In this document: piece by piece, positions 20,769 to 27,411 of the stretch
Numbering within the stretch: position 1 is the stretch's first letter
Layout: every line of letters begins with the position of its first letter
Virus record (IMG/VR): IMGVR_UViG_2693429668_000006
DNA from: a virus
Lineage: Duplodnaviria; Heunggongvirae; Uroviricota; Caudoviricetes
Direction: 5' to 3' (one strand)
Length of the DNA: 64,000 nt
The notes under the pieces: generated by a model
Database searches by the model: none
What the model was told of the DNA's origin: nothing
Seen by the model: the letters and a program-made list of their open reading frames with translations, nothing else
Translations under genes and position numbers: made by a program

Positions 20769-21023
20769 GTATGCTGTCAGCGGTGTTTTATTGAGGAATT
20801 TTTGTTTGGATATGCTATCAGCGGTAATTAATGGCATATGTCAGACCTTCGTATGCTGCCAGCGGTAATTTTGTTCTGGTTATACCCATACCGGTACACA
20901 TTATTCATGCAATGTCTTAAGTATGCTGTCAGCGGTAAAAAATCGAGTAAAGTATGCTGTGAGCGGTGAGATAGACTCTCGATATGCTATCAGCGGCAGT
21001 TGATTGTGTATGCTGTCAGCGGT
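20769..21023. repeat. downstream iteron cluster 2 (7 copies)
   Basis: copies at 20769, 20810, 20851, 20921, 20952, 20982, 21008. Confidence 0.75.
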
Positions 21024-21070
21024 GACGACTATGAAATATGACTGCGGAACGTGCCGCAGTCAGTTTGCAT

Positions 21071-21283
21071 TTAGTGTATTTTCTTCAACAGACCCCAAAG
21101 TGTTCCGGCTTTTGTAGTCAGTTTTCCTGTTTCTGGATCGTACATACGCCATTCACGCCGCTGGTGGACGATATACCCATCTTCACGTTCCAGACGCTCA
21201 AGAATGCCAGGCTGCTTGAAACCCTTAGCACGCCAGTATCCGCTTGTTTTCTCGATTTCCAGACCTGCCAGTGTTAATGCCAT
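21071..21283 (-). CDS. hypothetical protein (70 aa)
   Basis: ORF track; ATGA-type overlap with upstream gene. Confidence 0.35.
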   Translation of the reverse strand: MALTLAGLEIEKTSGYWRAKGFKQPGILERLEREDGYIVHQRREWRMYDPETGKLTTKAGTLWGLLKKIH

Positions 21284-21618
21284 TATCCAACCTCCTTGCA
21301 GTCATCGAAAAGGTAGCTTTGCTGAGAAGCGTGAACGCCATAGAAGCCCTTGTATTTGTTGTATACGAAGTGGTCTTCTCCGACGCCGGTTAATTTGCCA
21401 TTACGATTTGTGAGATATGGGGATGACAACACTCGATCGTCACGCACAACATAGAACTGGTCGCCGCTGTCTACGACCATCGCTCCATATGGTGCTTTTA
21501 TGACGTCGGTAAGAGCGCCATTCTTAACGTCGGCTACAGACATTTCACACTGATAAACAGTGGTGTCGGCCACAACGATCGAAGAAAGGAACAACAGCGC
21601 GAATGGGATGGCCTTCAT
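21283..21618 (-). CDS. secreted hypothetical protein (signal peptide)
   Basis: N-terminal MKAIPFALLFLSSIVVA signal-like sequence. Confidence 0.45.
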   Translation of the reverse strand: MKAIPFALLFLSSIVVADTTVYQCEMSVADVKNGALTDVIKAPYGAMVVDSGDQFYVVRDDRVLSSPYLTNRNGKLTGVGEDHFVYNKYKGFYGVHASQQSYLFDDCKEVG

Positions 21619-21794
21619 GCTGCCACCTCTTTGATTACATCAAATGCTGAATTAAATACGAGCACGATAGCCAAAGCGTTTATGACTACGTCGTGCACCG
21701 GGGAAAAGACTTTACGAATGACACCAGTGAAAATGCAGTCGATGACAAAAGCTATTGAAACGATGAGTAACAAGTATTCAATAAAAATCTTCAT
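21615..21794 (-). CDS. small membrane protein (59 aa), below ORF-track cutoff
   Basis: hydrophobic ORF with stop/start overlap to downstream gene; class-A-like motif at 21795-21817 upstream. Confidence 0.35.
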   Translation of the reverse strand: MKIFIEYLLLIVSIAFVIDCIFTGVIRKVFSPVHDVVINALAIVLVFNSAFDVIKEVAA

Positions 21795-21833
21795 GATAGG
21801 TAGATACTAACTTATATAAATTTTACTGTAAAC

Positions 21834-22109
21834 TCACTCAAAAGTGCTGATGCTTAAAATACGCTCAAGATGTTCGGCATCTTCATCACTGATTTGTTGA
21901 GTCTCTTCTACGTACCAACAGTTGCCGTTATGCCAACAAACACCATCATCATCAACCATCACTGAATCAGCGTCATGACCTGTATATTCAACGAGAATAC
22001 GCTGGATCAGCGCGTCAGTTTCTTCGTCGTTAAGGCCATCGGCTTTGACCATAAAAAGCGGAAACACGTCATAGACAGTGCTGGTAACGATTCGAACTAA
22101 AACTCTCAT
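21834..22109 (-). CDS. hypothetical protein (91 aa)
   Basis: conserved initiation context at 22109. Confidence 0.45.
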   Translation of the reverse strand: MRVLVRIVTSTVYDVFPLFMVKADGLNDEETDALIQRILVEYTGHDADSVMVDDDGVCWHNGNCWYVEETQQISDEDAEHLERILSISTFE

Positions 22110-22164
22110 GTGTTTTTCCTTTTGTGGTTAGTGTTTACTTATTTTGTTAGTTATGAATAGGCGA

Positions 22165-22590
22165 TCAATCTTCTTGTTTAGGGAAAAACTGTTCAATAAC
22201 TCTGTCAACGGCTGTGTCTATATGGAGTAGATGCCACACAACCATATCTTTGCTTCCCATGCCTTGTGTGAATATCACGTCATACTTACGCCATGCGCAG
22301 TGGAACCAATATGCTGAGTCATCAATTGGTAAATCCTCTCCCGCCTCTTTGAAGTATTTCAGCAGCATTGCCTGCTCTGCCGTTGGCGTTGGACCTATTT
22401 CCTGAGCGTACATACGGATGAATCGCTGCCAGTCTGTCTCGTCGGGGGTTGGATCTGGTGGGGTCATTTCTGCGATAGCGTTTCGTAGCTGATGCGCCCA
22501 ATCAGGTTCAGGAAAGCCTTTTGCTACTTCATCATCAATAACATCCAGAGCCACGTTTGCGGCATCGTAGAGTTTCTTAATAGCTGCCAT
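22165..22590 (-). CDS. hypothetical protein (141 aa)
   Basis: ORF track; class-B motif upstream. Confidence 0.45.
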   Translation of the reverse strand: MAAIKKLYDAANVALDVIDDEVAKGFPEPDWAHQLRNAIAEMTPPDPTPDETDWQRFIRMYAQEIGPTPTAEQAMLLKYFKEAGEDLPIDDSAYWFHCAWRKYDVIFTQGMGSKDMVVWHLLHIDTAVDRVIEQFFPKQED

Positions 22591-22602
22591 GTTTTCTTAT
22601 CC

Positions 22603-22626
22603 TTTTAAACAAATTGTTTTCTTAAT
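22603..22626 (-). promoter_or_regulatory. class-B palindromic motif TTTTAAACAAATTGTTTTCTTAAT
   Basis: upstream of gene starting at 22590. Confidence 0.4.
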
Positions 22627-22681
22627 AAGATAATTGCGATAAAAAAGGCGTCCAACTGGACGCCTGAACTTTTTAGGGGAG

Positions 22682-23512
22682 TTATTTCACTGTAATGAAA
22701 GGAGTGTTAGCCCCTTGAGTCATGTACTGCGGTAACTGGCCATTCCATTTATTGATGGCTTCCAGTTCCATAACGTTCGGGTTTTGACGCAGAGCTTCAC
22801 CGCGCAGACGAATGGCGTCTGCTTCTGCTTGCGCACGAGCACGGATAGCATCAGCTTCACCATTAGCCTGTTCACGTAGCATATTCGCCTCAGCTTTACG
22901 TTGTTCAACTTCCTGCTGACGTTGCAGAGTACGCTGGTTAGCCGTTACTTTGGCGTTAATAGATTCAATGACAGTTTTTGGGTAATCAGGCTTTCCAACC
23001 CATGACAGGCTCAGTACCTCAATACCAACCGGAGACATCTCTTTCTGAATATCTTTCAGTGCGTTGTCCAGCAATTGTGCCTTACCACCGTCGATAAATG
23101 AGTCAGTGGTCATACGGCTGGCCAAACGGTTTAGAGAGTCGGCAATTTTCTGACGCAGATCTGATTCGGTGATATCGTCTACGCCTTTGCGATAGGTCTG
23201 GAACACCGTCGTTACCTTGTCACGATTAACCAGATACGCAACGCCAATTTTGTGACCAATAGCAGTACCGTCACTCATCTGGAATGTGAACGGCTCGTCG
23301 TAGGTCTTTATTTGTTTGAAGGTCGGGAATACGTAAAGTTCGGTGTTAAGACCTGTCCATTGGCGACCAACGCCAACCACTTCACCAATCCCTTTGTCTT
23401 CACCTAATTTGTTTACTTTGATGCCAACGTATCCAGGCTCCACGCGATCACAGCCAGTAAGACCCATTGTGCAAATAGCCGCCAGAGCAACTGCAAGTAA
23501 ACCTTTCTTCAT
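22682..23512 (-). CDS. SPFH/band-7 domain lipoprotein
   Basis: lipobox LTGC after signal peptide; SPFH-like core; C-terminal Ala/Glu/Arg/Gln-rich coiled coil. Confidence 0.55.
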   Translation of the reverse strand: MKKGLLAVALAAICTMGLTGCDRVEPGYVGIKVNKLGEDKGIGEVVGVGRQWTGLNTELYVFPTFKQIKTYDEPFTFQMSDGTAIGHKIGVAYLVNRDKVTTVFQTYRKGVDDITESDLRQKIADSLNRLASRMTTDSFIDGGKAQLLDNALKDIQKEMSPVGIEVLSLSWVGKPDYPKTVIESINAKVTANQRTLQRQQEVEQRKAEANMLREQANGEADAIRARAQAEADAIRLRGEALRQNPNVMELEAINKWNGQLPQYMTQGANTPFITVK

Positions 23513-23515
23513 TAC

Positions 23516-23716
23516 TTATTTCCCCTTTGCTTTGATTAATGAGTTGATAAACTTACGACCAGCAATAAGACCGATTACAGGAGCACCAAAACCAACGACA
23601 ACTCCAAACATGACGGCTAAATCACTCTTGGTAGAAATCAGCGACGGAACCAGTAAACCGTAGATGAGAGCCACTGAAAGGCCTGTGGCTACTGCCAATA
23701 GATAGATTTTGATCAT
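23516..23716 (-). CDS. small membrane protein (66 aa)
   Basis: two hydrophobic segments; immediately upstream of SPFH gene. Confidence 0.4.
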   Translation of the reverse strand: MIKIYLLAVATGLSVALIYGLLVPSLISTKSDLAVMFGVVVGFGAPVIGLIAGRKFINSLIKAKGK

Positions 23717-23745
23717 GTGTTTTCCTATGTGGTTGTTATGTGAAA

Positions 23746-23768
23746 ATAATAAGTAAGTACTTATATAT
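23746..23768 (-). promoter_or_regulatory. class-A palindromic motif AATAATAAGTAAGTACTTATATAT
   Basis: upstream of 23716 start. Confidence 0.45.
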
Positions 23769-23807
23769 TTTCAAGAGATAAAAAGGCGTCCTGTGGACGC
23801 CTTGTGT

Positions 23808-26147
23808 TTACTCTTCTACTGACTCGGTGGGGTTGTCTTTTGCTCTTCGGTCGTCGATTGCCTGCAAAGCCGCAATGATTTCAGCCAGTGGCTTCTCCCG
23901 ATACATCTCGACGATCTGCGATTTGGTGTATTTCTTGTCACCAATTTCAACTCGCCCGCTGGCGTTCTTTGGCAGGTATCCTTCTTCCAGCATGTACTCG
24001 ACGAGCGATTCGATAACGTCGAGGCCACGAGTAGGATCGAAGTAGAATTTCCAGGTGCATTTGCCATACGGTGGTGCAACTTTGTTTTTGATGCATTCTG
24101 CGCCTACGTCCTGGCCGATCTTCTCTTTACCATCCTTCATCACCGATGCACCAAGACGGATACGTACAGAAGCGTAGAACTTCGGTGAATCTCCACCTGG
24201 CGACGTAGTAGGGTCGCCAAACATTACACCGATTTTTGTGCGAACCTGATTCAAGAAGATGATGCAGGCGTTGTATTTGCGTGCCCACAAAGCCAGAGTA
24301 GGGAAGTTCGCACTCGTCGCACGAGCCAGTGCCGTATTGTCGTTCATGTTTAGCTGATCTTTGTCTTTGGCTGTGCCTTCAGCCATCTTTTCGAACTTCT
24401 CGGCTTTGGAGTTCGGAACCATAGACGCAAGAGAGTCAGCCACGATACAGATAGGTGCTGATTCGGGGATAAGCTCTTCATCACGAACCAATTTAAGTAT
24501 TGTGCCGATCAACTCTACAGAGTCTTCGAAGGTATCTGGCTGCTTGTATACCCACTGACCGTCATCCTCATCTGCGTTCAGGCCATTGGCTACAGCCAGG
24601 CCAACGTCAAAACTGTTTTCATGATCGAGGAATACCGCCAGACCATCTTGTTTTTGAGCGGAGATCATCGCTGCTGTTGCAAGGAATGTGTTGTGGCTGA
24701 TAATCCCGTTAGACCAGAAAGAGTGTGTTTCCGGCATCGCTACGTCGAACGTTGGTGCTTCACCTTCCTCAATAGCCACGACTTCGTCGTAGAACAAGTT
24801 AGAGCCAATTACCGCTGCCAGTTGTGCAAACAGATGCTCGTTAAAACGATTCTTTCTGCCAATGAAGGAGACATAGATTTCTCGCAGTTTGTCTATTCCG
24901 ACACGATCGCCGCGGCCAATAACGTGGTCTACCAGAGCGTAGTCTTCACGGGTGGTCTTGGTGAGCGACTCGTAGAGTGATTTCACTAAGCCGCTGATGT
25001 GCGGAACATAGCCTGAGTAAGTGCGGTCAAAACCAATGTCCCGTTTGGTTGCCACTGATAAACGTGCCGGAGATTCGAAACCAATCGTTGACAGAAAAAG
25101 GTCGTAATTAGAGCCACTGAATGACAGCCGGTAATATGTATTTTCATAACCCGCGACGTGTTTTTCAGAGATAGTTGACGTAATCCCCAGATTCAGGAGC
25201 ATGAGGCGAATTTGCTGTAGCAGCAGCCCACTCGCGCTCACAACCTCAATGCAGCGACCATCATTGACGTGGCATTCCAGCTCAAAGTAGCCGCGAAGGA
25301 ATGCAATTTGAGCCTCGCTATTGGCGCGACGCACACTCAACGGAACCTGCTTGCCAGCAGCTTTCTCATACTCCAGACCATATTCTTTAAAAAGCAGCGA
25401 ACGCACCTCTTTGCTAAACAGCACATGGTCTTCCGAGCCGTTATGTTTTCTCGTAACTGGCATCTTGTCTGATACCAGCGAAATGAGGCGGTAGTACTCA
25501 TCCTTGATGAAAGGATCTGTGTTAGAAAAATTCACTGAATTTTCAGAGGCCACGTATCCGTCAGCAATTAAATAGCCCATCAGTTTTGCGATATTGGCAT
25601 CCAGGTGCTGATCGCCGAATTGATGTGTGCCAACCATTGAAGGAATCGTGTCGCCTACACTGATTTTTTCAGCATGTCGCCAGACGACATTACCTAAGTC
25701 GTCAACCACACGGATTGGGTGACGGAACGTAGCCTCGATATAACCGCCTGATGCCAGCTTAATACGCTTGAATTTGCGACGGTTGTTCCATGTCAGGTGT
25801 GAGGTCTTCTCTATCACGCCATTTTCATTGATGAGTCCAACGTTATGCTCTACATCGCGAGTAGTGCATGTCGCTTTGTACCCTTCAATCTCAAACAACT
25901 CTTTCACTGTTACCATTCCACGCTCCGTCAGCAGCATGGTGTCTGCGGTAACACATTTCCCCGCGCTTGGTGGCCCGAATACTTCTACGATACGACCACA
26001 TGGGAAACCGCCATCGTAACGACCGGAAATAGCTTTGTTTAACGGAGGAAAGCCTGTGTCAATCCAATGAGTTACTTTCTGAATTTCGTCGTTGCTACCG
26101 ATTTTCTTTTTCAGAGCAAGTGCCAGTGCGGATTTTCCTTTTGCCAT
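23808..26147 (-). CDS. recA: RecA-like recombinase precursor interrupted by an intein
   Basis: exteins (64 + 293 aa) carry RecA motifs GRIVEVFGPPSAGK|TF, FLDHENSFD, IIFLNQVR; insertion inside Walker A. Confidence 0.8.
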   Translation of the reverse strand: MAKGKSALALALKKKIGSNDEIQKVTHWIDTGFPPLNKAISGRYDGGFPCGRIVEVFGPPSAGKCVTADTMLLTERGMVTVKELFEIEGYKATCTTRDVEHNVGLINENGVIEKTSHLTWNNRRKFKRIKLASGGYIEATFRHPIRVVDDLGNVVWRHAEKISVGDTIPSMVGTHQFGDQHLDANIAKLMGYLIADGYVASENSVNFSNTDPFIKDEYYRLISLVSDKMPVTRKHNGSEDHVLFSKEVRSLLFKEYGLEYEKAAGKQVPLSVRRANSEAQIAFLRGYFELECHVNDGRCIEVVSASGLLLQQIRLMLLNLGITSTISEKHVAGYENTYYRLSFSGSNYDLFLSTIGFESPARLSVATKRDIGFDRTYSGYVPHISGLVKSLYESLTKTTREDYALVDHVIGRGDRVGIDKLREIYVSFIGRKNRFNEHLFAQLAAVIGSNLFYDEVVAIEEGEAPTFDVAMPETHSFWSNGIISHNTFLATAAMISAQKQDGLAVFLDHENSFDVGLAVANGLNADEDDGQWVYKQPDTFEDSVELIGTILKLVRDEELIPESAPICIVADSLASMVPNSKAEKFEKMAEGTAKDKDQLNMNDNTALARATSANFPTLALWARKYNACIIFLNQVRTKIGVMFGDPTTSPGGDSPKFYASVRIRLGASVMKDGKEKIGQDVGAECIKNKVAPPYGKCTWKFYFDPTRGLDVIESLVEYMLEEGYLPKNASGRVEIGDKKYTKSQIVEMYREKPLAEIIAALQAIDDRRAKDNPTESVEE
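24690..25955 (-). mobile_element. intein (422 aa) with LAGLIDADG homing-endonuclease domain
   Basis: starts Cys (CVTADTML...), ends ...SHN followed by Thr; LAGLIDADG-type motifs LMGYLIADGYV and AFLRGYFELE. Confidence 0.8.
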
Positions 26148-26149
26148 GA

Positions 26150-26422
26150 TCAGGCTCCTTTTGTTTCGTTGATTCGTTTTAAAGCGGCGGATTCGTCTAA
26201 TACAATCGCATCGTGATTAAGGAGTCTGGATACACGAGCGAGGATTTTTACGACCTGCTCGCTGACTAATCCAAACTCGCGATCTGTCGCTTTCATTCCG
26301 GCAGCGCCTAGAATTGACGGCAGTGCGATGACAGCGTACTCACCGTGATAAAAGACAATCTCTTTTGCCAGTTGGGTGGGGGTGGTTGTAGCGCCATTAA
26401 TAATCGATTTAAGCATTAGCAA
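26150..26422 (-). CDS. hypothetical protein (90 aa)
   Basis: ORF track. Confidence 0.4.
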   Translation of the reverse strand: MLMLKSIINGATTTPTQLAKEIVFYHGEYAVIALPSILGAAGMKATDREFGLVSEQVVKILARVSRLLNHDAIVLDESAALKRINETKGA

Positions 26423-27411
26423 TACCTTTCGAATGGAAGAACAAACACTTCAAGGTCTTCAAGGAACGAACGGAAATTCAGCTCGTAGCACAGTTGCTCG
26501 AATGCTTTCACGTCACGATTGCCTTTGATTGTTTCGATTTCGGTAGGCGGAAACTTCGTCTCAATCAGGTTCATTAGCGTGATGTTTCTCTTGAACGCTT
26601 CGAGCATTCGACAGCCTGTTTTCTCGTTGAAGGCATTCTTCGCTAGTTTGTTGAAGGCGGTCTTATGACGCCCTTTATTAACCACGATTGAGCCGTCGTT
26701 GATGCCGCGTACCATCGTTGCGACACTTCCCCATTCATGCAGCAGCTCTTTCGCACCGCCAGCACCAATGCCTCCAACACCGCTAATGTTGTCCGAGTTA
26801 TCGCCTTGTAATGCTTTTGCTTCCAAAAATGCGCGAGGCGTGGCGAATCCTGTCAGCTCCGCAAATTGCTCAAAATTAACCTGCTTGTTTTTGGCGTCTT
26901 CACGCAGGCTTACCCAGCTTACGTTTTCACGAACTAACTGAAGCCAGTCGCTATCGCCTGTTAACAGATAGATGTGTTCAACGGTTGGCTGCGGTGCCAT
27001 GCGGGATACCAGCAGCCCGGCCAGATCATCCGCTTCTGCATCTTTTGCAATGAGTTGGGTAACTCCAAGCGCGGTCATCATTTTGAGGATGTATGGCTTC
27101 TGGATAGCAAAGCCTTCCTTCATCTTTTTCATATCAGGATCGTCGTCGCGATTTGCTTTGTAGTCCGGGTAAAAGTCGCGACGCTTGTCACTAAATCCAT
27201 CCCAAAGAATCATAGGTCGGGCATGGAGGATGGAGGCATAACGACGGACGTTCTTAACAAAGCCGAAAGCAGCCTGTACTTCCATTTCGCCGTTGTGCAA
27301 TTTGTCAGATTGTTGGTGGTAATAACCCAGGCTATTGCCATCTACGAAGAGATAATTCACCGGTACATTCCTTCCAAAAAGTAAGGCGTCCGTAGACGCC
27401 TTACTGGTCAC
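26416..27411 (-). CDS. 5-prime-3-prime exonuclease / flap endonuclease (FEN family)
   Basis: N-terminal YLFVDGNSLGY, acidic cluster DAEADDLAG, H3TH-like C-terminal region. Confidence 0.75.
   Translation of the reverse strand: MTSKASTDALLFGRNVPVNYLFVDGNSLGYYHQQSDKLHNGEMEVQAAFGFVKNVRRYASILHARPMILWDGFSDKRRDFYPDYKANRDDDPDMKKMKEGFAIQKPYILKMMTALGVTQLIAKDAEADDLAGLLVSRMAPQPTVEHIYLLTGDSDWLQLVRENVSWVSLREDAKNKQVNFEQFAELTGFATPRAFLEAKALQGDNSDNISGVGGIGAGGAKELLHEWGSVATMVRGINDGSIVVNKGRHKTAFNKLAKNAFNEKTGCRMLEAFKRNITLMNLIETKFPPTEIETIKGNRDVKAFEQLCYELNFRSFLEDLEVFVLPFERYC

Follow-up and report, generated by a model that had tools for sequence, protein, structure and literature searches.

We have identified a conserved, mobile two-gene module, encoding an SPFH-domain lipoprotein and a membrane partner protein, in the SSU5-like phage-plasmid represented by IMG/VR virus record IMGVR_UViG_2693429668_000006 (Caudoviricetes), of which a stretch of 64,000 nucleotides (the window) was analysed. 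What is new is a phage-borne SPFH scaffold that combines a predicted lipid anchor with its own partner of a non-NfeD type. The two products probably form one complex, composed of a cage plus a transmembrane (TM) fence. For the complete proposal, in which this complex stands on the periplasmic face of the inner membrane and has a role in membrane integrity and quality control, we estimate a probability of about 0.45.

In databases the large protein is already described as "SPFH domain-containing" or "lipoprotein", and annotators of N4-like phages have noted the similarity of gp19/gp20. A literature search returned no paper describing the conserved pairing, the fusions presented below or any function.

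The two genes and their pairing

Both genes of the cassette are open reading frames (ORFs) of the minus strand:

22682-23512 (minus strand): SPFH lipoprotein gene, 276 aa
23516-23716 (minus strand): partner gene, 66 aa, encoding a two-TM inner-membrane protein

The ORFs share a reading frame and are separated by TAA plus 3 nt, which suggests translational coupling. An origin as chance ORFs is excluded for both.

A tblastn search found the SPFH lipoprotein in 412 phage records, and in 404 the protein is full length. Its carriers, virulent as well as temperate, include phiP27, Stx2a phages, the P2-like P88, N4-like phages, Vequintavirinae, phages of Pseudomonas, Burkholderia, Erwinia and Caulobacter, Myxococcus phage Mx1, crAss-like and Lak phages, and some Bacillus phages; the host range thus covers Pseudomonadota, Bacteroidota, Myxococcus and Bacillus. 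Among 1.84 billion cluster representatives, a profile search retrieved 357 clusters at E<=1e-30, a number that rose to 1503 at E<=1e-10 and to 4222 at E<=1e-3. A separate profile search with a diverse alignment returned mostly Enterobacterales proteins that had already been found (identity of at least 66%). In coliphage N4, the window SPFH protein has its counterpart in gp20 (annotated as "lipoprotein, similar to Yersinia pestis protein"; 64% identity) and the window partner in gp19 ("membrane protein"; 39% identity).

When the partner was used as the tblastn query against phages, matches were obtained in 6 records, since this query is short and hydrophobic. Therefore, a hidden Markov model (HMM), built from eight two-TM ORFs and iterated, was applied to the ORFs of the IMG/VR loci. 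The partner was found immediately upstream of the SPFH gene, on the same strand, as follows:

Window clade: 78 of 78 loci
Pseudomonas clade: 66 of 69 loci
crAss-like/Bacteroides: 48 of 77 loci (by HMM)

Three HMM-negative loci of the Bacteroides type were inspected, and each has a two-TM ORF of 70-76 aa directly upstream. Moreover, all the annotated examples inspected contain a two-TM ORF of about 50-85 aa, often unannotated, located directly upstream or at most two genes away; in phiE125 this ORF overlaps the SPFH start. All-against-all clustering of the ORFs of 25 representative loci revealed no third gene, P22 gp17-like genes included, common across clades. In phiP27 (L003, 2316-2501), crAss cr128_1 (L012, 1808-2008) and phiEa104 (L009, 1372-1578) the partner ORF is unannotated or misannotated, which makes the pairing invisible in the gene tables of these reference phages.

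Natural fusions

At least 18 of the best 150 cluster representatives (50% identity) are single polypeptides combining the partner and the SPFH protein. These fusions are about 320-390 aa long and show 31-57% identity to the reference sequence of the alignment. They are composed of (i) the two-TM partner with its loop motif, (ii) a basic linker of 10-60 aa, (iii) a hydrophobic segment with a lipobox-like Cys, and (iv) the SPFH body, ending in KWxGxLP. The Ser of the partner loop and the lipobox Cys are invariant in 18/18 fusions. An AlphaFold model of one of them (pLDDT 82) consists of three N-terminal helices followed by the SPFH body.

The occurrence of fusions in many lineages is strong evidence that both products act in one complex, at a ratio of about 1:1. 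Their layout also implies a topology with a cytoplasmic C-terminus of the partner, an outward crossing by the hydrophobic segment that follows, and an external SPFH body. Taking into account that the lipobox Cys is kept, we infer that the fusions may receive a lipid and be cleaved by signal peptidase II. Synteny, translational coupling and natural fusions together identify the small protein as a genuine conserved partner and the pair as a module.

The SPFH lipoprotein

The following parts of the lipoprotein were distinguished:

23450-23512 (minus strand): signal peptide with lipobox LTGC, Cys21 codon at 23452-23450, Asp at position +2 (from the sequence)
22886-23446 (minus strand): SPFH (Band_7) core, residues 23-209 (Pfam; AlphaFold, core pLDDT about 90; Foldseek)
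22784-22978 (minus strand): CC1, a single 65-residue helix rich in Ala, Glu, Arg and Gln, residues 179-243, predicted cage wall (AlphaFold, composition)
22685-22777 (minus strand): CC2 helix (residues 246-254) and C-terminal motif ELEAINKWNGQLPQY...PFITVK, predicted cage cap or beta-strand (conservation)

The N-terminus reads MKKGLLAVALAAICTMGLTGC followed by DR. Its signal peptide, MKK-GLLAVALAAICTMG-LTGC, has a KK n-region, a hydrophobic h-region and a lipobox (L18-T-G-C21), and thus contains all the elements of a signal peptidase II-type signal (charged n-region, h-region, lipobox [LVI][ASTVI][GAS]C). The lipobox Cys is invariant in 11/11 diverse phage homologues, and the lipobox is present in 109 of 144 full-length cluster representatives. 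This predicted mode of N-terminal anchoring differs from the TM helix or hairpin usual in SPFH proteins; in the fused variants the corresponding segment is the third hydrophobic helix.

The whole protein matches PHROG 200 ("lipoprotein") over its full length (E=6.9e-108). Pfam Band_7 (PF01145) was matched with E=2.2e-30 and 106.4 bits (gathering score 23.6), the alignment covering profile positions 2-176 of 176. In contrast, the scores with the NCBIfam equivalog models for HflC (TIGR01932; 30.2 bits vs 134.4) and HflK (TIGR01933; 19.2 vs 159.4) were below cut-off. Ala, Glu, Arg and Gln make up 58% of residues 179-243, compared with 28% of the whole lipoprotein. Near the C-terminus, K255, W256, G258 and P261 are invariant in the alignment of the 11 phage homologues (family context ELxAIxKWxGxLPxY...PFIxVK), and the motif [KR]WxGxxP occurs in 113 of the 144 full-length representatives. 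A dN/dS of about 0.03 indicates strong purifying selection on the SPFH gene.

These data bear out a first-pass annotation, made from the letters of the window, that had described at this position a 276-aa LTGC lipoprotein with a tail rich in Ala, Glu, Arg and Gln: ORF and lipobox lie where it had placed them. The SPFH-like core that it proposed is likewise upheld, both by the Band_7 match and by full-length structural matches to prohibitin and HflK/C (see below).

The two-TM partner

The partner protein was divided as follows:

23707-23645 (minus strand): TM1, residues 4-24 (hydropathy)
about 23647-23621 (minus strand): conserved periplasmic loop P-S-L-I-S-T-K-S-D (charge distribution, family alignment)
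23620-23558 (minus strand): TM2, residues 33-53 (hydropathy)
23557-23519 (minus strand): basic cytoplasmic tail with 5 K/R (charge distribution)

By the positive-inside rule, both termini are predicted to be cytoplasmic (N-in/C-in). The protein matches PHROG 1130 ("membrane protein") over its full length (E=4e-25); no Pfam or NCBIfam family was assigned, and at E<=1 Pfam gave just the sub-threshold DUF1427. Conservation among 38 representatives at 70% identity is concentrated in the periplasmic loop and the start of TM2, with the pattern [LM][ILV]-S-x-x-[DNS]-[ST]-x4-5-G; the loop Ser is found in about 80% of them and the TM2 Gly in about 90%. The dN/dS of the partner gene is about 0.13-0.23.

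Mosaicism of the partner gene was observed in a comparison of the window with four loci (L001, L002, L029 and L043). Relative to Cyrano (L001), PhiR41_1 and L043, amino acid identity is 98.6-99.6% for the SPFH protein and 96.5-100% for the RecA C-terminus, compared with 71-74% for the partner. The divergent DNA block coincides with the partner gene (dS 0.63, dN 0.15, dN/dS about 0.23), whereas dS in the SPFH gene is about 0-0.04. Such a dS between flanks with values near 0 points to gene-sized allele replacement by recombination, and positive selection on the partner, considered as another source of the divergence, is ruled out by the same figures. As far as can be judged from the sequences, distinct partner alleles, both with the loop kept, work with the same SPFH protein.

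Predicted structure

The AlphaFold monomer model of the window SPFH protein (pLDDT 79; alignment of 25 sequences) contains strands at residues 20-95 and 164-176, helices at 97-162, the long helix 179-243, the helix 246-254 and a tail of low confidence. Foldseek searches of the Protein Data Bank (PDB), with alignments of 260-316 columns, placed it next to prohibitin (8rrh, 7e-14) and HflK/HflC (7vhq, 7wi3 and 9cz2; 8e-14 to 6e-12); further matches were erlin, stomatin, flotillin, major vault protein and QmcA-YbbJ (8z5g, 2e-7). The same list was obtained with the fusion model. At the sequence level, HflK was the sole match in the PDB (E=0.007). The modelled layout is the canonical one of cage-forming SPFH proteins (SPFH1-SPFH2-CC1-CC2-CT), closest to that of prohibitin and HflK/C.

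According to a published regression, the number of subunits in an SPFH cage equals 0.178 x CC1 length + 10.2 (PMC12624060). Extrapolated to a CC1 of 65 aa, it predicts about 22 subunits.

Transcription and expression

The cassette is bounded by the following putative signals:

23783-23803 (minus strand): upstream hairpin AAGGCGTCC-aca-GGACGCCTT plus T-run, terminator of the RecA-like gene and upstream boundary of the cassette (terminator scan)
23746-23774 (minus strand): sigma-70-like promoter TTGAAA-17 nt-TATTAT, 10/12 consensus, between the upstream terminator and the partner start (promoter scan)
22646-22665 (minus strand): downstream hairpin AGGCGTCC-agtt-GGACGCCT plus TTTTTT, cassette terminator that could be bidirectional (terminator scan)

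With its own predicted promoter and two flanking terminators, the cassette has the make-up of an insulated transcription unit. The stem GGCGTCC/GGACGCC occurs twice in the window, in the hairpins at 22647-22664 and 23785-23801, both times at the cassette ends, with 0 copies expected by chance. Both hairpin stems are kept in SSU5-like relatives, in which the loops vary, and a stem of Y. pestis plasmid pMT1 carries a compensatory double substitution (GGCGCCC...GGGCGCC), which argues for selection on the hairpin structure. The shared 7-bp stem behaves as a terminator; alternatively, it could mark the ends of a mobile cassette.

Published RNA-seq data are available for Cyrano, a relative 96% identical to the window element, in strain LF82 (PMC9928086, S1 Table). 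The values, given as log2(fpkm+5) for two replicates, refer to the partner orthologue CYRAN_56, the SPFH orthologue CYRAN_57 and the genes on either side:

Stationary phase in LB: CYRAN_56 2.32/2.32 (floor), CYRAN_57 4.30/3.02; upstream RecA 3.56/3.12, downstream CYRAN_58 2.69/2.32 (PMC9928086)
THP-1 macrophages, 6 h: CYRAN_56 7.61/7.70, CYRAN_57 7.25/7.42; RecA about 4.05, CYRAN_58 about 4.0 (PMC9928086)

The pair is therefore about 10-40-fold higher in macrophages than in LB and changes without either flank, as expected of an independent transcription unit. The authors found no lytic induction of Cyrano in macrophages (PMC9928086). Thus, host-imposed stress can activate the pair while the element persists as a plasmid. 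Constitutive expression of the "moron" or lysogenic-conversion type, which promoter and terminators had led us to consider, is contradicted by the LB transcriptome: CYRAN_56 and CYRAN_57 are outside the 13 Cyrano "morons" that the authors defined as genes expressed 5-fold above background (PMC9928086).

Near the cassette there is a second condition-induced unit of three small genes, CYRAN_60-62, located between the DUF7238 block and RepA, whose values rise from 2.3-3.8 to 8.3-9.0 log2(fpkm+5) in macrophages. It corresponds to the window ORFs at about 21283-21794 plus the next small ORF toward RepA, and includes a "P1 Cra"-like gene.

In Y. pestis, the old locus tags YPMT1.49c and YPMT1.49Ac appear, in a passage of a review dealing with a multi-omic study, among the pMT1 genes with potential virulence roles (PMC3521224). 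Their assignment to the pMT1 pair rests on the phiE125 annotation, where the SPFH lipoprotein is equated with YPMT1.49c, and on adjacency.

Comparison with known systems

The phage protein and the HflK/HflC cage (7vhq, 7wi3, 9cz2) have in common the SPFH1/2 core, a long CC1, CC2 and a C-terminal segment, and in both the bulk of the protein would lie on the periplasmic side of the inner membrane, as predicted for the phage protein. However, HflK and HflC are anchored by an N-terminal TM helix and the phage protein presumably by its lipobox Cys; a K/C pair is replaced by one SPFH gene plus a separate 66-aa two-TM protein; and the cassette is phage-borne and horizontally mobile, with scores short of the HflK and HflC equivalog models. 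The SPFH-NfeD operons (QmcA-YbbJ, 8z5g; YqiK-YqiJ) likewise consist of two genes, for an SPFH protein and a small membrane protein. In the phage pair, by contrast, the partner comes first, belongs to PHROG 1130 and has no NfeD or OB-fold. In addition, QmcA faces the cytoplasm, unlike the phage SPFH protein, which is predicted to be exported.

Direct orthologues, alike in gene order, size and overlap, are N4 gp19/gp20, pMT1 YPO_RS00785/YPO_RS00780 (probably the old YPMT1.49Ac/49c; this region shows about 79% nucleotide identity to the window) and CYRAN_56/57. They are annotated just as "lipoprotein", "SPFH" or "stomatin-like". The N4 pair lies in the middle-gene block beside gp18, whereas that of the window forms an insulated unit between the RecA-like and DUF7238 genes.

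The superinfection-exclusion systems T4 Imm/Sp, T5 Llp and P22 SieA also involve a small inner-membrane protein and/or a lipoprotein, encoded in an early or accessory region and acting at the envelope. They have no sequence or fold kinship with the cassette products and a narrow distribution, in contrast to the broad and strongly conserved cassette. A spanin pair was considered and ruled out: the genes lie between recombination genes, Cyrano has a separate Rz/Rz1 (CYRAN_24/25), and the coiled coil is on the lipoprotein here and on the inner-membrane protein in spanins.

Proposed mechanism and its alternatives

We propose that the SPFH protein would be exported and then lipid-modified at Cys21. 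In Escherichia coli, an Asp at position +2 of a lipoprotein predicts retention in the inner membrane (Lol avoidance). Retention there is favoured by the Asp of the window protein, by its integral-membrane partner (fused to it in some lineages), and by homologues annotated as lipoproteins in Bacillus phages, whose hosts have no outer membrane. Oligomerisation via the SPFH domains, CC1, CC2 and the C-terminal strand could then produce a closed dome of about 20-24 subunits on the periplasmic face of the inner membrane, i.e. the side, and with the general architecture, of HflK/C. The partner, at about 1:1, would supply the TM "fence" for which cellular SPFH proteins carry their own N-terminal helix, docking via its conserved periplasmic loop to the membrane-proximal SPFH1 domain. 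The cage would enclose a patch of inner membrane during infection or envelope stress and sequester a conserved inner-membrane client of the host, other phages not being what is recognised; in this way it would preserve or reorganise the integrity of the inner membrane and protein quality control. Lipidation, the inner-membrane site, the oligomeric cage, the loop-SPFH1 contact, the client and the benefit are all steps that we infer.

Within this proposal, cage plus fence in one complex is the probable part. The assignment of a conserved host target, or of a generic role in membrane integrity and quality control, is more tentative and falls a little short of even odds; it derives from the breadth of the family, purifying selection on both genes and stress-linked expression in the lysogen. 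A bolder version, which we consider doubtful, sees in the cassette a portable viral "membrane organelle", a split minimal cage of the HflK/C type that phages of many bacterial phyla would place in the host inner membrane, where it captures a universal host machine (e.g. FtsH or a site of DNA or protein translocation) and protects the infected or stressed cell. Exclusion of rival DNA would then be one consequence, and some lineages would make a polyprotein cut by signal peptidase II at the internal lipobox.

Several observations weigh against the proposed cage and its role. Family members differ in the residue that follows the putative lipid-bearing Cys (S/T 46, D 14, G 13, E 8; n=109), and by the E. 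coli +2 rule many members would be outer-membrane proteins. SPFH proteins in general resemble HflK/C and prohibitin, a likeness that points to no particular client, and in the C-terminal 30 residues of the model pLDDT is <50. The macrophage data come from a 96%-identical relative, include a gene of 66 codons and comprise two replicates; several scattered late genes also rise under these conditions. The fusion library consists of proteins without DNA or context, so artefacts of gene calling or assembly are possible. One cluster representative of 344 aa (P0172) has its partner-like two-TM domain (FGLVVPTLISSSATFWVALGF) attached C-terminally to the SPFH protein, at odds with the topology that the other 18 fusions indicate; read-through into a following cassette or an artefact may account for it. 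Finally, according to a paper from 2026 it "remains unclear" why phages carry the SPFH lipoprotein gene (PMC13239085).

Lipoproteins and small proteins of the inner membrane are typical among the known exclusion proteins, and a complex of the predicted kind, in the membrane and periplasm, could also block DNA entry or a periplasmic step of a secondary phage, or the entry of conjugative DNA, as in the case of T4 Imm/Sp, T5 Llp and TP-J34 Ltp. Genes of the pair are found in early regions of virulent and temperate phages; in N4 (gp18) and Moo19 (gp29) a gene annotated as "superinfection exclusion, similar to P22 gp17" lies directly upstream; and in the Vi01-like PhiSH19 the SPFH gene is about 200 bp from one for a 106-aa "superinfection exclusion protein" (PMC3220722). 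The partner, moreover, is a gene-sized mosaic hot spot (71-74% amino acid identity vs 96-100% in the SPFH/RecA flanks). This divergence, however, reflects an allele swap and not positive selection, and the SPFH protein is conserved from Enterobacterales to crAss-like phages with a dN/dS quite unlike that of the fast-evolving, narrowly distributed exclusion proteins. The 25 representative loci have no third gene in common across clades, gp17-like ones included, and none is near the window pair. PADLOC-DB gave no match at E<=1 for the SPFH protein, the partner or the DUF7238 protein, no report of an exclusion function was returned by the literature search, and silence of the Cyrano pair in the LB lysogen is unlike what a prophage exclusion gene would need. 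We regard superinfection exclusion, which the first-pass annotation had put forward next to envelope remodelling, as rather unlikely. A mimic of HflK/C that takes over FtsH, altering its access to CII-like regulators, LpxC, sigma-32 or SecY, is less probable still. It is in keeping with HflK as the best sequence match among solved structures, with the weak NCBIfam HflC and HflK matches, with the role of prohibitin and HflK/C, the top structural neighbours, as partners of FtsH-family proteases, with a predicted position on the HflK/C side of the inner membrane, and with the universality of FtsH, which fits the family breadth. In lambdoid Klebsiella prophages the pair belongs to the early-left operon, downstream of a cI-like repressor, and the early-left region of lambda holds cIII, an inhibitor of FtsH. 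Yet the HflK/HflC scores of 19-30 bits are far below the equivalog cut-offs of 134-159; erlin, stomatin, flotillin and vault protein resemble the SPFH protein about equally well, so that FtsH is not singled out by the fold; HflK/C has an N-terminal TM helix that the SPFH protein lacks; and the pair is also present in virulent phages, which make no lysogeny decision.

An effect on lysis timing, a phenotype raised by the first-pass annotation, is improbable. Class II holins are proteins of about 65-85 aa that cross the membrane twice and end in a basic tail; the partner shares these gross features and might act like a holin or antiholin, with the SPFH cage corralling either the partner or the real holin and thereby delaying or sharpening lysis. 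N4, one of the carriers, is known for very delayed lysis. The pair is, however, never part of a lysis cassette (the holin-endolysin-Rz/Rz1 block of Cyrano, CYRAN_22-25, is separate), adjoining instead recombination or replication genes or lying in early operons; the partner has no Pfam or PHROG holin match and is conserved most in its periplasmic loop and less in its TM helices. As for the nature of the pair itself, the first-pass annotation was right to regard the 66-aa two-helix protein as the partner, given an ORF with two hydrophobic segments, synteny, coupling and fusions. The SPFH-NfeD analogy that it implied does not hold, because the partner has no NfeD or OB-fold match even at E<=1, for which its 66 residues leave no room, and belongs to PHROG 1130. 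Bacterial SPFH genes are often paired with NfeD, and some records name homologues "putative serine protease" or "SPFH serine protease", but Band_7 is the sole domain found in the SPFH protein by Pfam and NCBIfam, and a peptidase domain is absent. An NfeD-type pair or a protease is thus refuted at the level of domain content and has next to no credibility.

Genomic setting of the cassette

The direct neighbours of the cassette in the window are:

23808-26147 (minus strand): RecA/UvsX-like recombinase, 779 aa, upstream neighbour
22165-22590 (minus strand): DUF7238/PHROG 1451 protein, 141 aa, directly downstream

A plasmid RepA gene lies a few kb away, and an Rfam scan of positions 21000-27000 gave no match. 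The cassette is present in 196 of 5426 complete E. coli genomes (about 3.6%), where 198 of its 199 sites are on plasmids of about 100-114 kb. PLSDB contains 241 plasmids with the cassette, of which 62 are Yersinia records (about 79% identity); in pMT1 of Y. pestis CO92 the order recombinase, 201-bp ORF, SPFH gene is that of the window. For pMT of Y. pestis Angola (L289; NZ_CP009934.1, 54741-61910) the match was confined to the final 170 bases of the query, at its recombinase end, and the gene listing shows the recombinase with no adjoining SPFH or partner gene, in a PLSDB table that is incomplete and where pseudogenes are possible. The cassette appears to have been deleted or rearranged in this plasmid.

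An intein that includes a LAGLIDADG homing endonuclease splits the recombinase (Pfam: Intein_splicing 73-486, LAGLIDADG_3 279-356, RecA 484-703) and is missing from the 358-aa pMT1 orthologue of this enzyme. In RefSeq, some E. coli copies are called "recombinase RecA" and others "LAGLIDADG family homing endonuclease", suggesting that presence of the intein is polymorphic among SSU5-like elements. The DUF7238 protein, with 73-99% identity among relatives, is more variable than the SPFH gene.

Significance

Despite several solved structures, the function of bacterial SPFH cages and their choice of client are largely open. The cassette is a two-gene, non-essential and horizontally mobile version of such a system, found in the tractable model phage N4, in SSU5-like phage-plasmids of E. 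coli and in the virulence plasmid pMT1. Its anatomy has become well defined and can be tested directly in N4, and the fusions and the conserved partner loop provide mutable predictions for the contact between cage and membrane component. Should it prove to be one more exclusion gene, the function would be ordinary and the breadth still unusual. If it is a portable organelle, no virus-encoded SPFH system would have been functionally defined before it, and it would serve as a genetically minimal model of client choice by SPFH cages. If the induction in LF82 within macrophages reflects function, the cassette could contribute phage-borne envelope stress tolerance in pathogens.

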